A stretch of DNA of 64,000 bases from an uncultured Bacilli bacterium. GTDB taxonomy: Bacteria > Bacillota_I > Bacilli_A > RF39 > UBA660. Shown here one piece after another: positions 21,459 through 44,933 of this stretch. Position 1 is the first letter of the stretch. Every line of letters begins with the position of its first letter. A program made the translations under genes and the position numbers. Under the pieces are notes generated by a model that searched no databases, was not told where the DNA came from, and was given only the letters and a program-made list of their open reading frames with translations. The DNA is taken from NCBI GenBank assembly GCA_947632405.1, contig CANRPE010000002.1, forward strand, positions 1,254-65,253, in the 5' to 3' direction.

Positions 21459-22145
21459 TCATTCATAATTTTTATTTTGTTTCATTCTAAATAATATTAA
21501 ACCTACAATAAAAATTAGAAAAAGAAATATCATAATATAAGCTATTATTTTTTCATGATTTGATAAACTACTTTTCTTAATACTTTTATAATCTATTTTC
21601 ATATAAATACTTTTATTTTTAAAATTTTGATCAGTAATATTCCATATATATTCATTATCTTTAACTTTATCTGCATTAGTTTCTACAACTTTATAATCTG
21701 TATTAACATGAACAGTCAATTTATCAATTTGCTTTTGACCATCTCTATAAATACAATCAACTCCATTACTTGTATTCAAAGTAATATAATTTTGATCTTT
21801 AATAACACTTTTATTATAAAAACATTCACCTATAGCATTAGAATATTGTAACTTTTTAATAGGATAAACATATTGATAAGTTAATGCTAGTGAATTATTT
21901 TTTTTATCTTTAGATTGACTAATATCATAATACTTAGATTCATTATAATCATTATCATAATAAGCTAATGTTTTATTATTAGTTATTTGTTCAATTAATT
22001 TTTGATTAGTTGTAGTATTATTAAAAAATGCTACAATCTTTTCTTTAGCATTTTCTTTATCAATATTTATTGTATAATCAACACTACAACCTGTCATAAA
22101 TAAGGATAATATTAATAATAATAAAACTTTACTGATATTTTTCAA
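21459..22145 (-). CDS. Lipoprotein with an additional C-terminal TM anchor (T4SS-associated, function unknown)
   Basis: Lipobox LFMTGC near the N-terminus and a C-terminal hydrophobic segment, IIAYIMIFLFLIFIVGLILF. It sits between the hydrolase and VirD4 genes. Confidence 0.55.
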   Translation of the reverse strand: MKNISKVLLLLILSLFMTGCSVDYTINIDKENAKEKIVAFFNNTTTNQKLIEQITNNKTLAYYDNDYNESKYYDISQSKDKKNNSLALTYQYVYPIKKLQYSNAIGECFYNKSVIKDQNYITLNTSNGVDCIYRDGQKQIDKLTVHVNTDYKVVETNADKVKDNEYIWNITDQNFKNKSIYMKIDYKSIKKSSLSNHEKIIAYIMIFLFLIFIVGLILFRMKQNKNYE

Positions 22146-38821: not shown

Positions 38822-39268
38822 TTAATATAGTCCTTTTAAATATTTTGTTGTTAAAATAGGATCCTGTTTATTATTTGTTTCTAAGATTCCTTCAAGTCTT
38901 GTTGAAATATTAACATTAGAAGTTCCATCTGGAGAAAAACTATTATTAAGTGAATCTATTTGAATTGTAACTTTAGGTGGTACTTCATTAATATCATAAA
39001 ATTTAATATCATATTCTCTAGAATTATCAACATTAGATGCAAATCTAAGGACGAAGTTTTCAACAAACTTCTCCTTATCTATTCTATATACACCACGTTC
39101 TGTATGATATGAAGTATCAATAGCATCCATCATTGCTGCTTGAGTTGTTTCTTTTAATAAATAATAATCTAGTTCATTTCCTGTAGAATAATTAGTAATT
39201 AAGTTAATAGCCGCTAAAGCTAAAATACTTAATACAATGATACCTACTGTTAAATATGCTTTATTCAT
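38822..39268 (-). CDS. N-terminally anchored 148-aa protein, possible pseudopilin
   Basis: MNKAYLTVGIIVLSILALAAINLI is followed by a small alpha/beta-looking domain. It sits between the giant protein and CpaB genes. Confidence 0.35.
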   Translation of the reverse strand: MNKAYLTVGIIVLSILALAAINLITNYSTGNELDYYLLKETTQAAMMDAIDTSYHTERGVYRIDKEKFVENFVLRFASNVDNSREYDIKFYDINEVPPKVTIQIDSLNNSFSPDGTSNVNISTRLEGILETNNKQDPILTTKYLKGLY

Positions 39269-39284
39269 TTATTAACACCCTCCC

Positions 39285-42257
39285 TTAATTATTATTGAAT
39301 CCAATTCTTGTATTAACTACAGCATCAGTAGTATAAGTTGGATCATAGAAAATATTACTTTTATAGTAGTATAAACCTTCTACTTTTTCTGGACTTTCAT
39401 TTTTATTATTACCTTGATATGAAATATATCCATATTTTTTTGCATAAGAGCGTAAATTTTTAATATTTTCTTTTGTTAAATGTACTGTATAATCAGCAGT
39501 ACCACTATAAACTGAATCTGGATTACCTTTTGCTTCTTCTTGAAGTGTTTCAGCATAATTTCCAGGATCAATTCCATAACTTGTTCCTGCTGCAACTTTA
39601 TCTGTAGCTGCACTTGTCCAGTTAAATCCAACTTCTCTTTGATTTATTCCATCAGAAGCTGGGAATAGTAATTGTTGTTCTACTGGTCTAAATACTGTGT
39701 TACATAATGCTGTACTATTTTCATTACTACATTCATTTTTTTCTTCGGTAGTTGGTGGTGGCGTTGTATTATCGCCAGAATCACCAGGATCATCTGGATC
39801 AACTTGATTACTTAAAGCATAGAAGCAATTTAAATCAATATTCCAACTATATTTACCAAAGTTTCTAATATTTGTTTTTATATTATCTGGTCTTTCTACT
39901 TTAATAGTATTTATATCTCCCTTATTATTGATTTTCCAATTCCACCATTGTTCATTTACTGGTTCAAAGTCATAGCCAGTACAATAGTAATTTTCTTTTT
40001 CTCTAGTATTATCTTTATTTACTTTATCTTCATGATAATATCTCTTAGCACTTTTTAAATCAATCCATGTACCAGGGAAAGTAATAGTAGTTTTATAATG
40101 TTGCCAATATTCTGGATTATCTTTTCCATAACAAATTCCATTAATACCATTAAGTGCACATAAAGCATCTTTAGAAGTTTCTTTATCAGAATCTAATGGA
40201 ATAAACATTTTTACATCTCCAGTTGGAGTTAAACATGTATTATTAGCAGATGTTTTATTTTGTGATGACCAACTAGATTGATCATCTGGATTTTTATCTT
40301 TCATTACATCATTATCAACTTGCATATCAAATGTTGCTTCTTCTTCATTTGTACATTTAGCACTAGCTGTACATTCAGATAATTCTGCACTAATTTTTTC
40401 AAATTTTTCAACATAGTATTTTCTAAGATTTTCACTACTATCTTGACATTCACCTGCTGTTGTTTTTAAGAATCCACAAGTTTCATAACATTTATAACTT
40501 CTTGAACGTTGTCTTTTTATACCACCATCATCGATTATATAAGATCTTGCTTCACCATAACCATTTAATCCATTATTTACTCCATAGAATGATTGAATAG
40601 TTTTTAATGCTACAGTTTGATTACGGAAATAATATGGTGATGATCTTTTTATAGATTCAATCCAGTTATCCCCAGAAGGTGAACCTGTTGTTTTTGCTAC
40701 ACTAGAATCTGGTTTCCAAATATAATCGAACCAATCAATATTTCCATTATATTTTTGATAAACTCCTAATGGTTCTTCTTGTTTTAATTTATAAAATGCT
40801 TTTGCACATGCTTCTGCATTGCTTTTAATTTGAGCATTAGTTTTACATCCATCGATATTATAATATGGATCATCTTTATTTTCTTTTGCAAGTTTTTTAA
40901 CATTACTAAATGTTGTTGTTGCAGCAACTTTTTTCGTTGTTGTATTATTTTTTTCATATACTTTTTTATAACAAGAATTTATACAACTTTGTGAATATTT
41001 ACCATTATCACAAGCTTGAATACAAGTATCAAAGTCTTGGCTTGGTCCTGCTTGAGTTTCATTTTCATTTCCACTACAAATTGGAGTATAACTACAAATT
41101 GAAGGAGGTGTAGGCCATTTTATATCGCCTTTTGGTTGAGTTTTACATGTAACTTTACTTTTTACTGTTACTTTATATTGGAAACAAAGTCCTGCTTTTG
41201 TTGCAACAGGTGGATCATATGTAACTTGAATTTGTTCTTGACATGTAACACTACATGCATTATTATTTACTTCTTCGTTTTCAGTATAATATTTAGCTGT
41301 TTCCTCTGTAGTTTGTTCTTTCTTACAAGATAAAGTTTCTACACTAATTCCCTTACTATTATAAGTTAATTTCTTATAACCCTCATTTTCAATTTCTGCT
41401 TTAGCTTTATCAAATTCAGAATTATCTTTTTGACTTGATACAAAATCTAAATAAACTTTATATGCTTTTAAAGATGCTTTTCTTACTTTTTCAATATCTT
41501 TAGCTGTAATCTCAAAAGTTGATGAGTAACCTTGATAACAATATGGAAAACTAGATTTCATTTGAGCATTATATTTATCAACATCTTCTTGGCTTGATAA
41601 ATAAACATCACCATCTTTTTCAAGCTTTCCTTCTAGCATAGCTTGGCATTCTTTGCCTTCTTTTGAATTAGGATCTACTGCTATACTAACCTTTGCATCA
41701 TCTGCAAATTTTTGAGAAATATATGCTGCTGTATTATTAATCTGAAGTTTACCACTATTATCAATTGCTACATTTCCTGCTTTACATGTTGTAGTAGCTG
41801 ATTTTCCATCTTTATCTTTATAAGTAACTTTTAAAGCTTTTCCATCAGTATTAACAATTTTTCCATTATCATTCTTAACAGGCTCAGCAATTAAGAAAAT
41901 TGCATTACCAGGACCTACACTAATTTCTAAATCATTACCCCCTGTATAATTAACAGTTATTGGAGTTGCTTGACTTCCTAATACTAAGGAATAATCTGCT
42001 GATGTAGAGTCATAATCAATAGCATATTTAATTTTCCATTTTCCTTCTTTAGAATGAATCTTAATTTTATAATTTTGTTTATCTACTGTTAACATTTTAT
42101 CTGTATATAAAGCATTTTCACAAGCTTTATCTGCTAATGATTTTGTACCTGTTGCACTTTGCTTTGTTTTAGCATTTACTTCTGTTACCATTAAAAATAC
42201 AGAAAATACTAATACTAGTATTAAACATTTACCAACCCTTTTACTAAAACTATGCAT
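39285..42257 (-). CDS. Giant secreted cysteine-rich protein (990 aa), paralog B
   Basis: Sec signal ending VNA|K. About 30 Cys by hand count. The conserved core is AGLCFQYKVTVKS ... QAGPSQDFDTCIQACDNGKYSQSCINSCYKKVY. It has a Pro/Asp-rich linker and a C-terminus NTRIGFNNN. There is no LPXTG and no C-terminal TM. Confidence 0.8.
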   Translation of the reverse strand: MHSFSKRVGKCLILVLVFSVFLMVTEVNAKTKQSATGTKSLADKACENALYTDKMLTVDKQNYKIKIHSKEGKWKIKYAIDYDSTSADYSLVLGSQATPITVNYTGGNDLEISVGPGNAIFLIAEPVKNDNGKIVNTDGKALKVTYKDKDGKSATTTCKAGNVAIDNSGKLQINNTAAYISQKFADDAKVSIAVDPNSKEGKECQAMLEGKLEKDGDVYLSSQEDVDKYNAQMKSSFPYCYQGYSSTFEITAKDIEKVRKASLKAYKVYLDFVSSQKDNSEFDKAKAEIENEGYKKLTYNSKGISVETLSCKKEQTTEETAKYYTENEEVNNNACSVTCQEQIQVTYDPPVATKAGLCFQYKVTVKSKVTCKTQPKGDIKWPTPPSICSYTPICSGNENETQAGPSQDFDTCIQACDNGKYSQSCINSCYKKVYEKNNTTTKKVAATTTFSNVKKLAKENKDDPYYNIDGCKTNAQIKSNAEACAKAFYKLKQEEPLGVYQKYNGNIDWFDYIWKPDSSVAKTTGSPSGDNWIESIKRSSPYYFRNQTVALKTIQSFYGVNNGLNGYGEARSYIIDDGGIKRQRSRSYKCYETCGFLKTTAGECQDSSENLRKYYVEKFEKISAELSECTASAKCTNEEEATFDMQVDNDVMKDKNPDDQSSWSSQNKTSANNTCLTPTGDVKMFIPLDSDKETSKDALCALNGINGICYGKDNPEYWQHYKTTITFPGTWIDLKSAKRYYHEDKVNKDNTREKENYYCTGYDFEPVNEQWWNWKINNKGDINTIKVERPDNIKTNIRNFGKYSWNIDLNCFYALSNQVDPDDPGDSGDNTTPPPTTEEKNECSNENSTALCNTVFRPVEQQLLFPASDGINQREVGFNWTSAATDKVAAGTSYGIDPGNYAETLQEEAKGNPDSVYSGTADYTVHLTKENIKNLRSYAKKYGYISYQGNNKNESPEKVEGLYYYKSNIFYDPTYTTDAVVNTRIGFNNN

Positions 42258-43029
42258 CTAAAACATCTCCTTCCATTATTTTCTTTATTTTATTATAGTT
42301 TTTATTTTCTTTTATTTTATAATTACTAATTAACTCATTTTTTCTTACTAATCTAGCATCAACAACAAATGAATACTCAGTTGTTGGACCAAAAAATCTT
42401 GTACATGTCACAAGTGTTATTAATTTATCATTTTCATCTACATCTATATTAAAATCGAAATAACTATTTTTTTTAGTATATTTAATATATTGTTTTAACT
42501 CTTTTTTACTAGGATTTATATTATCATAATCTAAATCTTCTTCTTTTTGAAAAGAAATACCATATATCTTAAATAAATAGTTTTTACCATTTACTGTATA
42601 TTGGATATATTTATTGTCTTTAACAAAATCTGAATAAATATAAGCCATTAATTGTTCAAATCTTTTATGATTTTTATTACCTATTAAAGGATTAGAAGAT
42701 ACATTTAATATATTATGAGAAAATAGTGTTGTTTTTTTCTGTAATGTTTTTTTATCAGAGTAACTCCAACCTAATTCATAAGTTGGATCTGAAACATCAC
42801 TAGTATCATAATTAACAATTGGAAAGTCTATATTTGTTCCTTGAACTTTCAACCATCCTATTGCTGTTTCACCATTTACTCCTTTGAATTGTTTCATTTT
42901 TTTAGTTCTATCTTCTACTTTATAAAAGGGAAATAGTAATTTCCAAATCAGAAAACCAATTATTATTAAAATTACGATAATAATGAGCAGTCGCGACAAC
43001 ATATATTTTTTCGATTTTAATTTTTTCAT
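42250..43029 (-). CDS. Class-B-like sortase
   Basis: N-terminal TM and IGWLKVQGTNIDFPIV. The catalytic triad candidates are His in TLFSHN, Cys in LITLVTCT and Arg in VVDARL. Its stop overlaps the start of the 990-aa gene by 8 nt. Confidence 0.8.
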   Translation of the reverse strand: MKKLKSKKYMLSRLLIIIVILIIIGFLIWKLLFPFYKVEDRTKKMKQFKGVNGETAIGWLKVQGTNIDFPIVNYDTSDVSDPTYELGWSYSDKKTLQKKTTLFSHNILNVSSNPLIGNKNHKRFEQLMAYIYSDFVKDNKYIQYTVNGKNYLFKIYGISFQKEEDLDYDNINPSKKELKQYIKYTKKNSYFDFNIDVDENDKLITLVTCTRFFGPTTEYSFVVDARLVRKNELISNYKIKENKNYNKIKKIMEGDVLDA

Positions 43030-43041
43030 AATATCTTACCT

Positions 43042-44841
43042 CTATTTTGTTATTGTATATGGATTTGTTTCACTACCTTCTCCATTTTTTATAACAATGT
43101 TTTTATCTAAATAACCAACTAATCTAATACCATTTGTTTCTTCACTATCAAATTTATTTGAAGTAATACCTAATGTTGCTGAATTAATATAAACTGAATC
43201 TTTAGATATTTCTTGATACCATGTACTAACACCATTAGTTGTATTAGCACTATATAAATCAAATACACTAGCTAAAGATAATTTAACATTATATTTTTTT
43301 GTATTTTTTTCTTGATTATATAAAACATAATCATTATATGTATTTACTGTTATTGCTTTAGAAACAAAATAAGTCGTTTTTATACTTTCAGATATTTGAT
43401 TTACAATTTTATAAGCAACATTATTTTTTCTAGTTGGATTATATGGTGTTAACTTAGAATCATATTTAGTATAATAACCCTCACCATTATTCTTTACTGG
43501 TTCTGTCATAATTACTTTTGTAGTTTCATCGTTTTCTTTTTCAATAACTCTCCAAAGATAACCTGAGTATGAGATATAACTTCCTGTATTAACATTTGAA
43601 ATTTTATTTCCTTTTTTAGAAGTATTCTTATTTCCCTTTAAAATATATGGATTAGAACTACTTCCATCTCCTGCAATTACTGTTGCATTCTCAGTAATAT
43701 TTAAAGCAGGTTTAATATTAAATATTTTGTTATTACTAAATTCTTTATAATTTGAAAAATTACTATTTGCTATATCAAAATAGGAAGATACCCAAGCTGT
43801 TTTTTTATCAGTCTTAGAATTAGAAGTCCAAACAGCTGTATCATTTACTATATTTGAAACACCATCACTATCTTTAGAATTATTATAATCTAAAATAGAA
43901 AGTAACCCTATTGGATTTTTCTTAGAATAGTTTGTACATTTTTTATATTCATCTGGATTTTTTACACTATCAATGCACCATTTACTATCTTTTTTAATAT
44001 AATCTTTAGCACTATTGCTTAATTTTTCATAGAAATAATCATTTAACCAAGAATTAATACCTTCATAATCTACTGATCCTAAAGCTTCTTTAGAAACAAC
44101 TTTTACACTATTATCTTCATTTATACCTATCATCTGGAATAAAATACCATCAAGTTTTACATAATTATTATTTTGATTTCCTTGATATATTTTTGTTTTA
44201 CCTGTATCTTCTTTAATAATATTATTTAATGTTTGTGTTACTTTAACTTTTCTTATTTTTACTGTTTTATTTTCTAAACTATCTTTAGCAGTATATGTAA
44301 CTTCATATGTACCAATTTTATTTACGTTTACTTTGCTTGTATCTACAGTAACATCATTGATACTCATTTTTCCATCACTATCATCAATAACACTTTTAAT
44401 ACCTTCATCTTCATAAGCATTACCTTGATAAACAACAACTTCATCATTACCTTTTAAAGTAATTGTTGGTCCTTCATGATCAATTTTTGATTTAAACATA
44501 CCACATTTTAAATAAACATTATATTCATATTCGCCATTTATTTTTCTAACTCTTGCCCAACTTTCATCTGACTCACAATATTTATTTGTATATGGCGCTC
44601 TTAAATCTTCTTTAATAAAGTCTTGTTTATATAAAGTTTGTAATGATACTTTTTTAATTTTAGTACCTGTTGGAAGCTTACTCTCATTTATTTCAAAATA
44701 TCGTTTTGTTGCTTCTAACATATTTTTTTCCATACTTTTAAATTTTAGTATTGGACTAACTACTAAAAACCACACTAATAAAACAACTACAAGAACTGTA
44801 ATCATTATTTTAAAATTCTTTTCATCCTTTTTTTTCTGCAT
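43042..44841 (-). CDS. N-terminally anchored surface protein (599 aa): shared N-module, DUF5011-type Ig domain and two WR[IV]I domains
   Basis: One TM and ATKRYFEINESKLP...YEYNVYLKCG. The Ig-like stretch is HEGPTITLKGND..GIKSVIDDSDGK..IGTYEVTYTAKDSLENKTVKIRKVKV. The two repeats end GDGSSSNPYILKG and GEGSETNPYTITK. Confidence 0.75.
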   Translation of the reverse strand: MQKKKDEKNFKIMITVLVVVLLVWFLVVSPILKFKSMEKNMLEATKRYFEINESKLPTGTKIKKVSLQTLYKQDFIKEDLRAPYTNKYCESDESWARVRKINGEYEYNVYLKCGMFKSKIDHEGPTITLKGNDEVVVYQGNAYEDEGIKSVIDDSDGKMSINDVTVDTSKVNVNKIGTYEVTYTAKDSLENKTVKIRKVKVTQTLNNIIKEDTGKTKIYQGNQNNNYVKLDGILFQMIGINEDNSVKVVSKEALGSVDYEGINSWLNDYFYEKLSNSAKDYIKKDSKWCIDSVKNPDEYKKCTNYSKKNPIGLLSILDYNNSKDSDGVSNIVNDTAVWTSNSKTDKKTAWVSSYFDIANSNFSNYKEFSNNKIFNIKPALNITENATVIAGDGSSSNPYILKGNKNTSKKGNKISNVNTGSYISYSGYLWRVIEKENDETTKVIMTEPVKNNGEGYYTKYDSKLTPYNPTRKNNVAYKIVNQISESIKTTYFVSKAITVNTYNDYVLYNQEKNTKKYNVKLSLASVFDLYSANTTNGVSTWYQEISKDSVYINSATLGITSNKFDSEETNGIRLVGYLDKNIVIKNGEGSETNPYTITK

Positions 44842-44905: not shown

Positions 44906-44933
44906 ATTTTATCATATTGAGATAAATTGTCAA
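44906..44933 (-). promoter_or_regulatory. Promoter of the 599-sortase-990-Tad transcription unit
   Basis: The minus strand reads TTGACA (44933-44928), a 16-nt spacer, then TGATAAAAT (extended -10; TAAAAT at 44911-44906). Confidence 0.5.

Follow-up and report, generated by a model that had tools for sequence, protein, structure and literature searches.

Sortases are defined by a His-Cys-Arg catalytic triad and by substrates in which a sorting motif is followed by a hydrophobic segment and a basic tail. The sortase described here is encoded on the minus strand of a 64,000-nucleotide (nt) stretch of an uncultured RF39-type Bacilli bacterium (the window; GenBank assembly GCA_947632405.1, contig CANRPE010000002.1, positions 1,254 to 65,253; source genome of 1.35 Mb, 25.5% GC, 96% complete). 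It belongs to a clade, termed TCTR below, that breaks both of these rules despite its strong conservation and its strict co-inheritance with the neighbouring genes. The gene is embedded, as the sequence-only reading of the window had it, between the 599-amino-acid (aa) and 990-aa genes. The former encodes an N-anchored protein and the latter a secreted, anchorless protein (the giant), and the cassette that they form part of precedes a cluster for a Tad-like motor and a type IV secretion system (T4SS). A full-text literature search retrieved no description of the TCTR sortase clade, nor of DUF5411, the family of a pilin-like cassette protein, in such a context.

The best sequence and fold matches of the protein are class B sortases (S. 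aureus 1NG5 and 4LFD; C. difficile 4UX7 and 5GYJ; C. perfringens 5B23). Common to both are an eight-stranded beta-barrel, an N-terminal transmembrane (TM) helix, the motif GW..(V/I).gTnIdyPv, a His at the end of beta4, TLxTC at the end of beta7 and a helix between beta6 and beta7. However, the window sortase is 24-26% identical to these enzymes, scores 62 against 153.75 bits on the class B model TIGR03064, and differs from them in an 11-residue insertion, the TCTR sequence, a Ser in place of the beta8 Arg, a C-terminal extension of about 30 residues and the lack of an NPxTN/SPxTG-type substrate with hydrophobic segment and basic tail. Fold matches also include the pilus-assembling sortases (S. 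pyogenes Spy0129, 3PSQ; S. pneumoniae PI-2 SrtG, 4Y4Q), which supply the concept of subunit joining. The pilins of those systems carry (E/Q)VPTG-type cell wall sorting signals (CWSS) with TM segment and tail, together with Lys pilin motifs, features that are all absent from the proteins of the cassette; moreover, the present filament system is of the Tad-like kind and not sortase-polymerised.

A dedicated class B sortase beside a single substrate is known from S. parasanguinis, where SrtB serves AbpA, whose signal consists of LPKTS followed by AVK alone, with no hydrophobic or charged tail (PMC4974636). The present locus resembles this pair in placing a dedicated class-B-type sortase beside one secreted protein with a putative anchorless signal, but AbpA retains an LPxT core, which the giant's tail lacks and the NPYTI of the 599-aa protein matches only loosely, and the partner here is a Cys-rich protein of about 1000 aa inside a Tad-like/T4SS cluster. 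A second parallel is the adhesin TIE(pLS20)/p34 of pLS20, which is secreted without LPXTG, TM segment or known wall-binding module and whose attachment is unexplained (PMC8092201). Both cases present an anchorless secreted adhesin in a Gram-positive conjugation-type locus; the difference is that pLS20 has no sortase gene and that host sortases are dispensable for its transfer. Among 72,556 plasmids, no sequence relative of the sortase or the giant was found, only distant srtB genes. RF39 bacteria are predicted to possess a peptidoglycan wall (PMC10868615).

Class and active site of the sortase

Residue conservation was read from alignments of 22 and then 70 relatives, the latter 41-74% identical to the query. 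The features of the gene are as follows.

42250..43029, minus strand: sortase open reading frame (ORF) of the TCTR SrtB-derived clade; 259 aa, ATG start, GAGGTAAG ribosome-binding site upstream; N-terminal TM helix (residues ~3-32) and extracytoplasmic catalytic domain
42715..42717, minus strand: codon of catalytic His105, which ends beta4; invariant in 70/70, within SHN here and GHN in most relatives
42667..42708, minus strand: clade-specific insertion LNVSSNPLIGNKNH, residues ~108-121, followed by the invariant RFEQL (profile alignment)
42403..42405, minus strand: codon of catalytic Cys209, which ends beta7 (TLVTC); invariant in 70/70
42397..42399, minus strand: codon of Arg211 (TCTR); invariant in 70/70 and also present in an Oscillospiraceae sister family
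42370..42372, minus strand: codon of Ser220, at the position of the canonical beta8 catalytic Arg (alignment)

Class models, fold and phylogeny all place the protein nearest to class B, as the sequence-only reading had supposed. The Pfam Sortase model (PF04203; MEROPS C60) matched residues 60-228 over its entire 125 positions at 35.9 bits (cut-off 26.6), and among the NCBIfam class models only that of class B, TIGR03064, was matched, at 62.2 bits and thus below its equivalog cut-off of 153.75. The class C models of the same scan were unmatched, and the LPKTxAVK-specific SrtB model NF040525 gave no match at E<=0.01. An SrtB-like N-terminal motif (GWLKVQGTNIDFPIV) aligns with the SrtBs of C. perfringens and C. 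difficile. The AlphaFold (AF2) model (pLDDT 85.7, pTM 0.84) contains the N-terminal TM helix and, as in SrtB, a helix between beta6 and beta7 (residues 175-188). In a Foldseek comparison with the PDB, the best 19 matches were class B sortase chains (target-normalised TM-score 0.59-0.77), with class A and C sortases ranking below them; there were 121 matches at E<=0.001, and all 50 among the matches listed were sortases. In a tree with the six other sortases of the genome, the TCTR clade was monophyletic (support 95/91) and sister to the same genome's two canonical SrtBs, while SrtB and the TCTR clade together split from four class C/D-like paralogues at 100/100. A search of 5.8 billion proteins yielded 325 relatives, the best 120 of which are 47-74% identical and 246-276 aa long, save three shorter, probably truncated entries. 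It is well supported that the 259-aa protein is a genuine SrtB-derived sortase whose His and Cys are under strong selection. It is not a standard SrtB, given its low TIGR03064 score, the insertion after the His, the TCTR sequence and the non-canonical Arg.

The triad proposed from the sequence alone (TLFSHN, TLVTCT and VVDARL) proved correct in two of its three members. His105 aligns with YGHNM of C. difficile SrtB and terminates the AF2 strand E99-104, and Cys209 aligns with the Cys of TLxTC in the SrtBs of the PDB and ends the strand E203-209. An apparent replacement of the catalytic His by Asn, seen when phmmer set GH opposite GN of C. perfringens SrtB, was an artefact, as the family and C. 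difficile profile alignments give H105. W59, G64, T65, H105, N106, N109, P114, R123-F-E-Q-L127 and T208-C209-T210-R211 are invariant in the 70 sequences. The insertion, an 11-residue gap in C. difficile SrtB relative to the family profile, reads VSSxPLIxDKxH before RFEQL; within it N109 and P114 are invariant, S111 is found in 69/70 and H121 in 62/70 sequences, and residues 108-114 of the model have low pLDDT.

The third member does not hold: VVDARL is present, but its R226 is not the canonical Arg. MAFFT alignment with the genome's own SrtBs sets TTEYSFVVDAR opposite NTKNRRVIHAK, and ungapped alignment sets EYSFVVDAR opposite NQRFVVMAR of the sister family and NRRVIHAK of the genome's canonical SrtB, the sister-family comparison pairing TCTRFFGPTTEYSFVVDARLVRKNE with TCTRAYGQTANQRFVVMARLMRPGE. 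From these alignments we conclude that the canonical beta8 Arg corresponds to Ser220, so that no conserved catalytic Arg stands at the start of beta8 in the 259-aa sortase; the commonest residues at position 220 in the 70 relatives are S (25), E (15), T (11) and D (7). R226 lies opposite a basic residue, Lys or Arg, with which beta8 closes at its far end (the Lys of HAK in SrtB), is a Lys in 6/70 relatives and, judging by strand geometry in the model (beta8, 219-227, paired with beta7, 203-209), would sit in that part of the hairpin which points away from Cys209. The beta8 Arg is essential in the sortases studied (SrtA R197, SrtB R233). Arg211 is the sole strictly invariant Arg near the nucleophile and may be a candidate stand-in for the missing residue, and position 222 is Lys or Arg in 54/70 relatives and Val in the window sortase.

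The nearest outside relatives, class B sortases of Oscillospiraceae (LTW-04, Candidatus Fimivivens; P0337, P0316, P0210), are 28-37% identical and belong to a family of about 270 clusters annotated as class B sortase, with profile scores of 110-150 bits as against about 40 for canonical SrtB. They share with the TCTR clade the insertion (GHNxxNxSxxPxIG), the TCTR sequence and a beta8 of the form FVVxAR(L/M)xRxGE, but keep the canonical Arg (QRFVVMAR). Since this sister family combines insertion and TCTR with the Arg, it is specifically in the cassette clade of RF39 that the Arg was lost. Unlike the RF39 sortases, its members have a long low-complexity Ser-rich linker or extra N-terminal domains (in one, P0266, Ig-like repeats precede the sortase domain) and are stand-alone genes near dcw and envelope genes, outside any pilus/T4SS cassette. 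In the loci L121 and L122 they occupy a conserved position between mraZ-PBP-Mur (dcw) and PIG-L/GT2-GtrA/NAGPA genes, with no adjoining substrate from which a motif could be read. A phylum-level genome search for the family gave a single additional match, from the class to which the window belongs; Clostridia yielded none.

A catalytically dead sortase fold acting as a scaffold or chaperone in export or folding of the giant would agree with the missing canonical Arg and the low score on the class B equivalog model. His105 and Cys209, however, are absolute over 70 sequences, down to about 41% identity, which is hard to explain without catalysis, and we consider this alternative highly improbable. 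The conservation pattern suggests that the sortase is probably still catalytic despite the missing canonical Arg.

Gene order and inheritance of the cassette

The cassette comprises the following elements, together with one membrane protein of the T4SS part.

42250..42257, minus strand: overlap of the sortase stop and giant start, 8 nt (ATGcaTAG); translational coupling
39285..42257, minus strand: Cys-rich secreted giant of 990 aa, which has a signal peptide but lacks a membrane anchor; foremost candidate for partner or substrate; C-terminal end ...YTTDAVVNTRIGFNNN
39288..39314, minus strand: C-terminal tail of the giant, NTRIGFNNN; candidate non-canonical signal
38822..39268, minus strand: pilin-like DUF5411 protein of 148 aa, encoded immediately downstream of the giant (PF17424, E 1.7e-45)
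43042..44841, minus strand: 599-aa N-anchored protein with an immunoglobulin (Ig)-like domain (PF16403 at 127-201) and two ~170-aa domains; ends GEGSETNPYTITK
44906..44933, minus strand: promoter-like site TTGACA-16-TGnTAAAAT; 11/12 match to the consensus with an extended -10, a consensus match alone
44986..48141, minus strand: 1051-aa paralogous giant, 37% identical to the 990-aa protein, without a sortase of its own; ends NTRLGYNNN
48159..49916, minus strand: 585-aa paralogue of the 599-aa protein, 52% identical, with PF16403; ends GDGTSLNPYEIAK
49927..51489, minus strand: 520-aa polytopic membrane protein opening the cassette; weak DUF4352 match
21459-22145, minus strand: 228-aa predicted lipoprotein (lipobox MTGC) with C-terminal TM segment and basic tail, between VirD4-like and cell-wall hydrolase genes

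We surveyed gene order over 79 species-level loci. The order is a polytopic protein of ~520 aa, an N-anchored Ig-like protein of ~590 aa, the sortase, a Cys-rich giant of 860-1360 aa, DUF5411, CpaB-CpaF-TadB-TadC and the T4SS, with DUF5411 after the giant in nearly all loci. The 8-nt overlap already noted in the window has counterparts elsewhere: the sortase stop overlaps the giant start, by 4-47 nt, in 65/65 loci where the giant is callable. Sortase-giant(-DUF5411) units also occur without an adjoining 590-aa gene.

Co-occurrence was assessed with four queries over one set of 301 genomes of the order. The TCTR clade (E<=4e-43; next sortase paralogue at 1.4e-14) was found in 53 and is thus absent from 82% of the genomes. 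The giant was found in 54, namely all 53 sortase carriers plus one with a fragment at a contig edge, and full-length ~590-aa orthologues (E<=1e-65) were confined to the same 53. DUF5411 is present in 244/301 genomes and 106/127 genera, which makes the cassette with the sortase one variant among the heads of a cluster that is far more widespread. The conclusion that the sortase is dedicated to this cassette is well supported.

The window, like the entire contig C2, contains one sortase domain, and its restriction to the second of the two module copies, pointed out in the sequence-only reading, is true for this genus, while other genomes carry a sortase in both cassettes. Copy ratios of sortase, giant and 590-aa gene of 1:2:2, 1:2:1, 2:2:1 and 2:2:2 were seen (L107, L108, L113; G091, G097, G208), and in G208 DUF5411 is duplicated along with the giant. 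The promoter-like site sits in a 144-nt gap upstream of the 599-sortase-990 module, the cassette's sole sizeable intergenic gap, and this strong match to a sigma-70-like promoter suggests that the module may be transcribed apart from 520-585-1051.

The genome encodes seven sortases, the six others being located on C11, C12, C13 and C15. Two are canonical SrtBs (C12, C13) that score 201 and 185 bits on TIGR03064 and 83-89 bits on NF040525 (below the cut-off of 200) and adjoin NPQTS/NAQTS proteins; the four class C/D-like enzymes overlap or abut an upstream VPNTG, VPNTD, VPNTY or VEDTA protein. No match to a class A model was seen in the genome. A genome-wide scan for CWSS recovered VPNTG, VPNTD, VPNTY, NPQTS and NAQTS proteins, each immediately upstream of one of these six sortases. 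In agreement with the absence of a canonical substrate claimed earlier, no window protein combines a sorting motif with a hydrophobic segment and a basic tail, and no CWSS or NP(Q/K)(T/S)(N/G/S)-type substrate was detected among the cassette and cluster proteins. The 228-aa lipoprotein, the cluster's sole protein with a C-terminal TM segment and basic tail, was rejected as a hidden substrate because it has the lipobox MTGC and no sorting motif. Sortase-domain ORFs of 520-565 aa, present in many other RF39 genomes, were likewise set aside as unrelated SrtB fusions away from the cluster. In these proteins an SrtB-like domain follows an N-terminal extension of ~360 aa, and one (L092:8787-10403, G021:C4) adjoins the lysyl-tRNA synthetase gene.

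These surveys bear on whether the enzyme is instead a general or housekeeping sortase that acts in trans on canonical CWSS proteins elsewhere, its position in the cluster being incidental. Two CWSS-like proteins, a 1073-aa VPNTM protein (C45) and a 346-aa protein (C3), have no neighbouring sortase that we could find, and the Oscillospiraceae relatives stand alone near dcw and cell-envelope genes, as housekeeping sortases often do. However, the perfect co-occurrence with the giant and the coupling to it across 53 genomes and 65 loci, the clade's absence from most of the order and the presence of six other sortases that already serve canonical motifs, each beside its substrate, render such a role improbable. 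That a canonical substrate elsewhere is the sortase's only target, which the sequence-only reading had named as a possible refutation, is unlikely: CWSS proteins do exist elsewhere, each beside its own sortase.

Candidate substrates and signals

Both neighbours of the sortase have conserved anchorless C-termini, NPYTITK in the 599-aa protein and NTRIGFNNN in the 990-aa giant. Conservation of a C-terminus alone is no evidence of a signal, since the 520-aa protein has a conserved end of its own (YT[IV]RNxxYxY[KR][IL][KR], conserved together with its position in about 50 loci).

The giant has no Pfam or NCBIfam match, and none of 65 giants has a hydrophobic C-terminus (maximum 15-residue hydropathy 1.0). 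In the AF2 model of its last 170 aa (pLDDT 72.9), for which no PDB fold match was found, TDAVV (T977-V981) forms the last strand and NTRIGFNNN a coil. The tails of the two window giants, NTRIGFNNN and NTRLGYNNN, share 7/9 residues, as compared with an identity of 38% for the last 170 aa. The paralogous giants of G136 and of G208 show the same pattern, with nearly identical tails, and those of G091 end KWQIGTNNR and NWEPGFNNK. Gene conversion as the source of the common tails was considered and discarded: a single synonymous difference was seen in the 3' DNA, and the test is weakened by codon bias. The specific string NTR[IL]G[FY]NNN, earlier put forward as a novel signal, turned out to be genus-specific; over 65 giants only the core G-x-N-N (or x-C-N-N) recurs. 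This core is conserved at the level of at least 80-90% among giants, with G-x-N-[NGS] within the last 45 residues in 49/65, x-C-N-N in most others and 1-38 variable residues after the core. Correlations involving the tail type are confounded by phylogeny.

The 599-aa protein is the alternative candidate acyl donor, and this is the chief rival to the giant. In about 65 orthologues, the ~590-aa proteins conserve an end of the form G-x-G-T-x-x-x-P-Y-x-[IL]-x-K, 3-5 residues from the C-terminus, and the NPYTITK of the window protein resembles the NPQTS motif of the genome and the LPKTSAVK of AbpA. According to this scenario, the C-terminal end of the ~590-aa protein, with NPYTITK as an NPxTx-like string and a 3-residue leaving group, would be cleaved and joined either to the wall, so that the machine is stapled to peptidoglycan, or to the giant through one of its amines, giving a covalent stalk plus head. 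The order of substrate followed by sortase at all six other sortases of the genome, the fixed position of the end motif, the fit of NPYTI to the NPxTx class B pattern and to the NPQTS/NAQTS substrates of the genome's SrtBs, the likeness to the short AbpA signal, the N-terminal TM segment, which supplies the membrane retention usually provided by a C-terminal anchor, and the presence of full-length orthologues in the same 53 genomes all speak for it. However, an identical PYxI-type ending also closes the internal repeat of the 585- and 599-aa proteins (GDGSSSNPYILKG) and terminates the 430-455-aa paralogues of genomes without this sortase, and is therefore a feature of the domain fold. On these grounds the suggestion that the NPYx[IV] ends are the signal was not upheld. 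In addition, the would-be P1 residue varies among orthologues (T, K, I, V, S, E, N, Q, R, Y), and sortase-giant units are found that have no 590-aa gene adjoining them. We consider the ~590-aa protein unlikely to be the donor.

The cassette's slot is filled differently in five genomes that lack the sortase clade (L095-L099: G116:C2, G241:C25, G137:C13, G021:C5 and G073:C3). The gene in that position encodes a type I membrane protein of 217-254 aa that starts with a signal peptide, has Cys residues in its ectodomain and carries a TM segment followed by a KRKR tail at its C-terminus; it matches neither Pfam nor the sortase profile. Its stop overlaps the start of a Cys-rich giant of 1069-1225 aa in 4/5 genomes, and in the fifth its gene lies 19 nt upstream of that of a 647-aa protein. 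Two of these giants weakly match the C-terminal domain of the giants of the sortase cassette (domain E 4e-9 and 3e-6), and three end VIGGPS[WY]K, not G-x-N-N. The theme common to both cassettes is a gene for a membrane-bound partner coupled to an anchorless giant.

This arrangement bears on a further alternative, in which the sortase performs no turnover transpeptidation and is either a hydrolytic maturase that trims the C-terminal extension of the giant or a single-turnover tether that keeps the giant at the membrane as a long-lived thioacyl intermediate. The beta8 Arg was lost in the RF39 clade only and kept in the stand-alone Oscillospiraceae family, the 1-38-residue extensions after the G-x-N-N core are hypervariable, and the coupling of a plain membrane-anchored protein in sortase-less genomes suggests a need for a membrane-bound partner rather than for a ligase. 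The strict invariance of His, Cys and TCTR argues against such a role, as does the Lys or Arg at position 222 in most relatives, which makes compensation for the lost Arg plausible, and we know of no precedent for a sortase as a stable anchor. We regard either form of this explanation as distinctly unlikely.

The DUF5411 protein is a possible acceptor or adaptor. Some sortase-less genomes have DUF5411 as the N-terminal part of a larger protein of 570-585 aa, and one such fusion that was scanned (L095:7049-8779, minus strand, 576 aa) adds fn3 and Peptidase_M15/VanY (D-Ala-D-Ala carboxypeptidase) domains. By its domain content, this fusion would tie the pilin-like protein to peptidoglycan remodelling. 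A fusion of DUF5411 with the giant or the 590-aa protein was sought and none was found; the long DUF5411 ORFs carry fn3 and Peptidase_M15/VanY. A role of the sortase as replacement for a prepilin peptidase was rejected, as an A24 peptidase is encoded elsewhere (C40) and the topology is wrong.

Proposed function and significance

Based on these observations, we propose that the sortase is dedicated to the covalent tethering of the anchorless giant via a non-canonical signal, a proposal that we rate at slightly less than an even chance. The fold, the invariant His and Cys, the boundary of the clade, synteny, coupling and co-occurrence are established by the data. Activity in spite of the lost canonical Arg is inferred, as are substrate, signal and acceptor, and the hypothetical mechanism would run as follows: (i) the sortase would form a fixed part of an exchangeable head cassette, consisting of the 520-aa polytopic protein, the ~590-aa N-anchored stalk, the sortase, the ~1000-aa anchorless giant and the DUF5411 pilin-like protein, which precedes the Tad-like motor/T4SS cluster in RF39-type gut Bacilli; (ii) the giant would be exported by Sec and then covalently tethered by the sortase; (iii) Cys209 would attack an anchorless C-terminal signal, for which the exposed tail around the G-x-N-N core is the best candidate; (iv) the acyl-enzyme would be resolved by transfer to the cell wall or to a partner bound to membrane or pilus, such as DUF5411 or the 590-aa protein. 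The giant is favoured as the target because its gene is universally coupled to that of the sortase, because sortase-giant(-DUF5411) units exist apart from the 590-aa gene, because it is the sole cassette component without an anchor, because its tail type is cassette-specific and because anchorless signals have a precedent in the AbpA/SrtB pair.

Several findings weigh against this proposal. The canonical beta8 Arg is absent in the TCTR clade, so the transpeptidase activity of the clade is not assured. The giant's tail is unlike known sortase motifs, with no Pro and no conserved Thr, the strict form G.N[NGS] is confined to 49/65 giants, and in the window a single residue follows the motif. Co-occurrence cannot single out the giant, since orthologues of the 520-aa and 590-aa proteins accompany the sortase with the same perfection. 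Finally, the six other sortases of the genome all lie directly downstream of their substrate gene, which by analogy indicates the 599-aa protein, not the giant, as the substrate. A bolder reading is that RF39 bacteria build the exchangeable head of this chromosomal machine by a sortase chemistry that dispenses with both an LPXTG-type motif and a membrane-anchor signal, in which the Arg-less sortase, relying on a TCTR active site, would recognise a short anchorless tail (G-x-N-N of the giant or PYx(I/L)xK of the stalk) and link the giant covalently to a membrane-, pilin- or wall-bound partner; it seems to us conceivable though doubtful.

The locus represents a widespread, uncharacterised pilus/secretion cluster of abundant uncultured gut bacteria. 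Should the sortase merely be a maturase or scaffold, it would document a repurposing of the sortase fold. If, on the other hand, it ligates the anchorless giant, a new sorting signal would be revealed, possibly together with a new ligation specificity for protein engineering, and it would be explained how the contact protein of the machine stays on the cell, the same question that is posed by the pLS20 TIE adhesin. If the reading of the non-canonical tail is true, sorting signals would gain a new class, and sortases would be seen in a new use, in machines for type IV filaments or for secretion.

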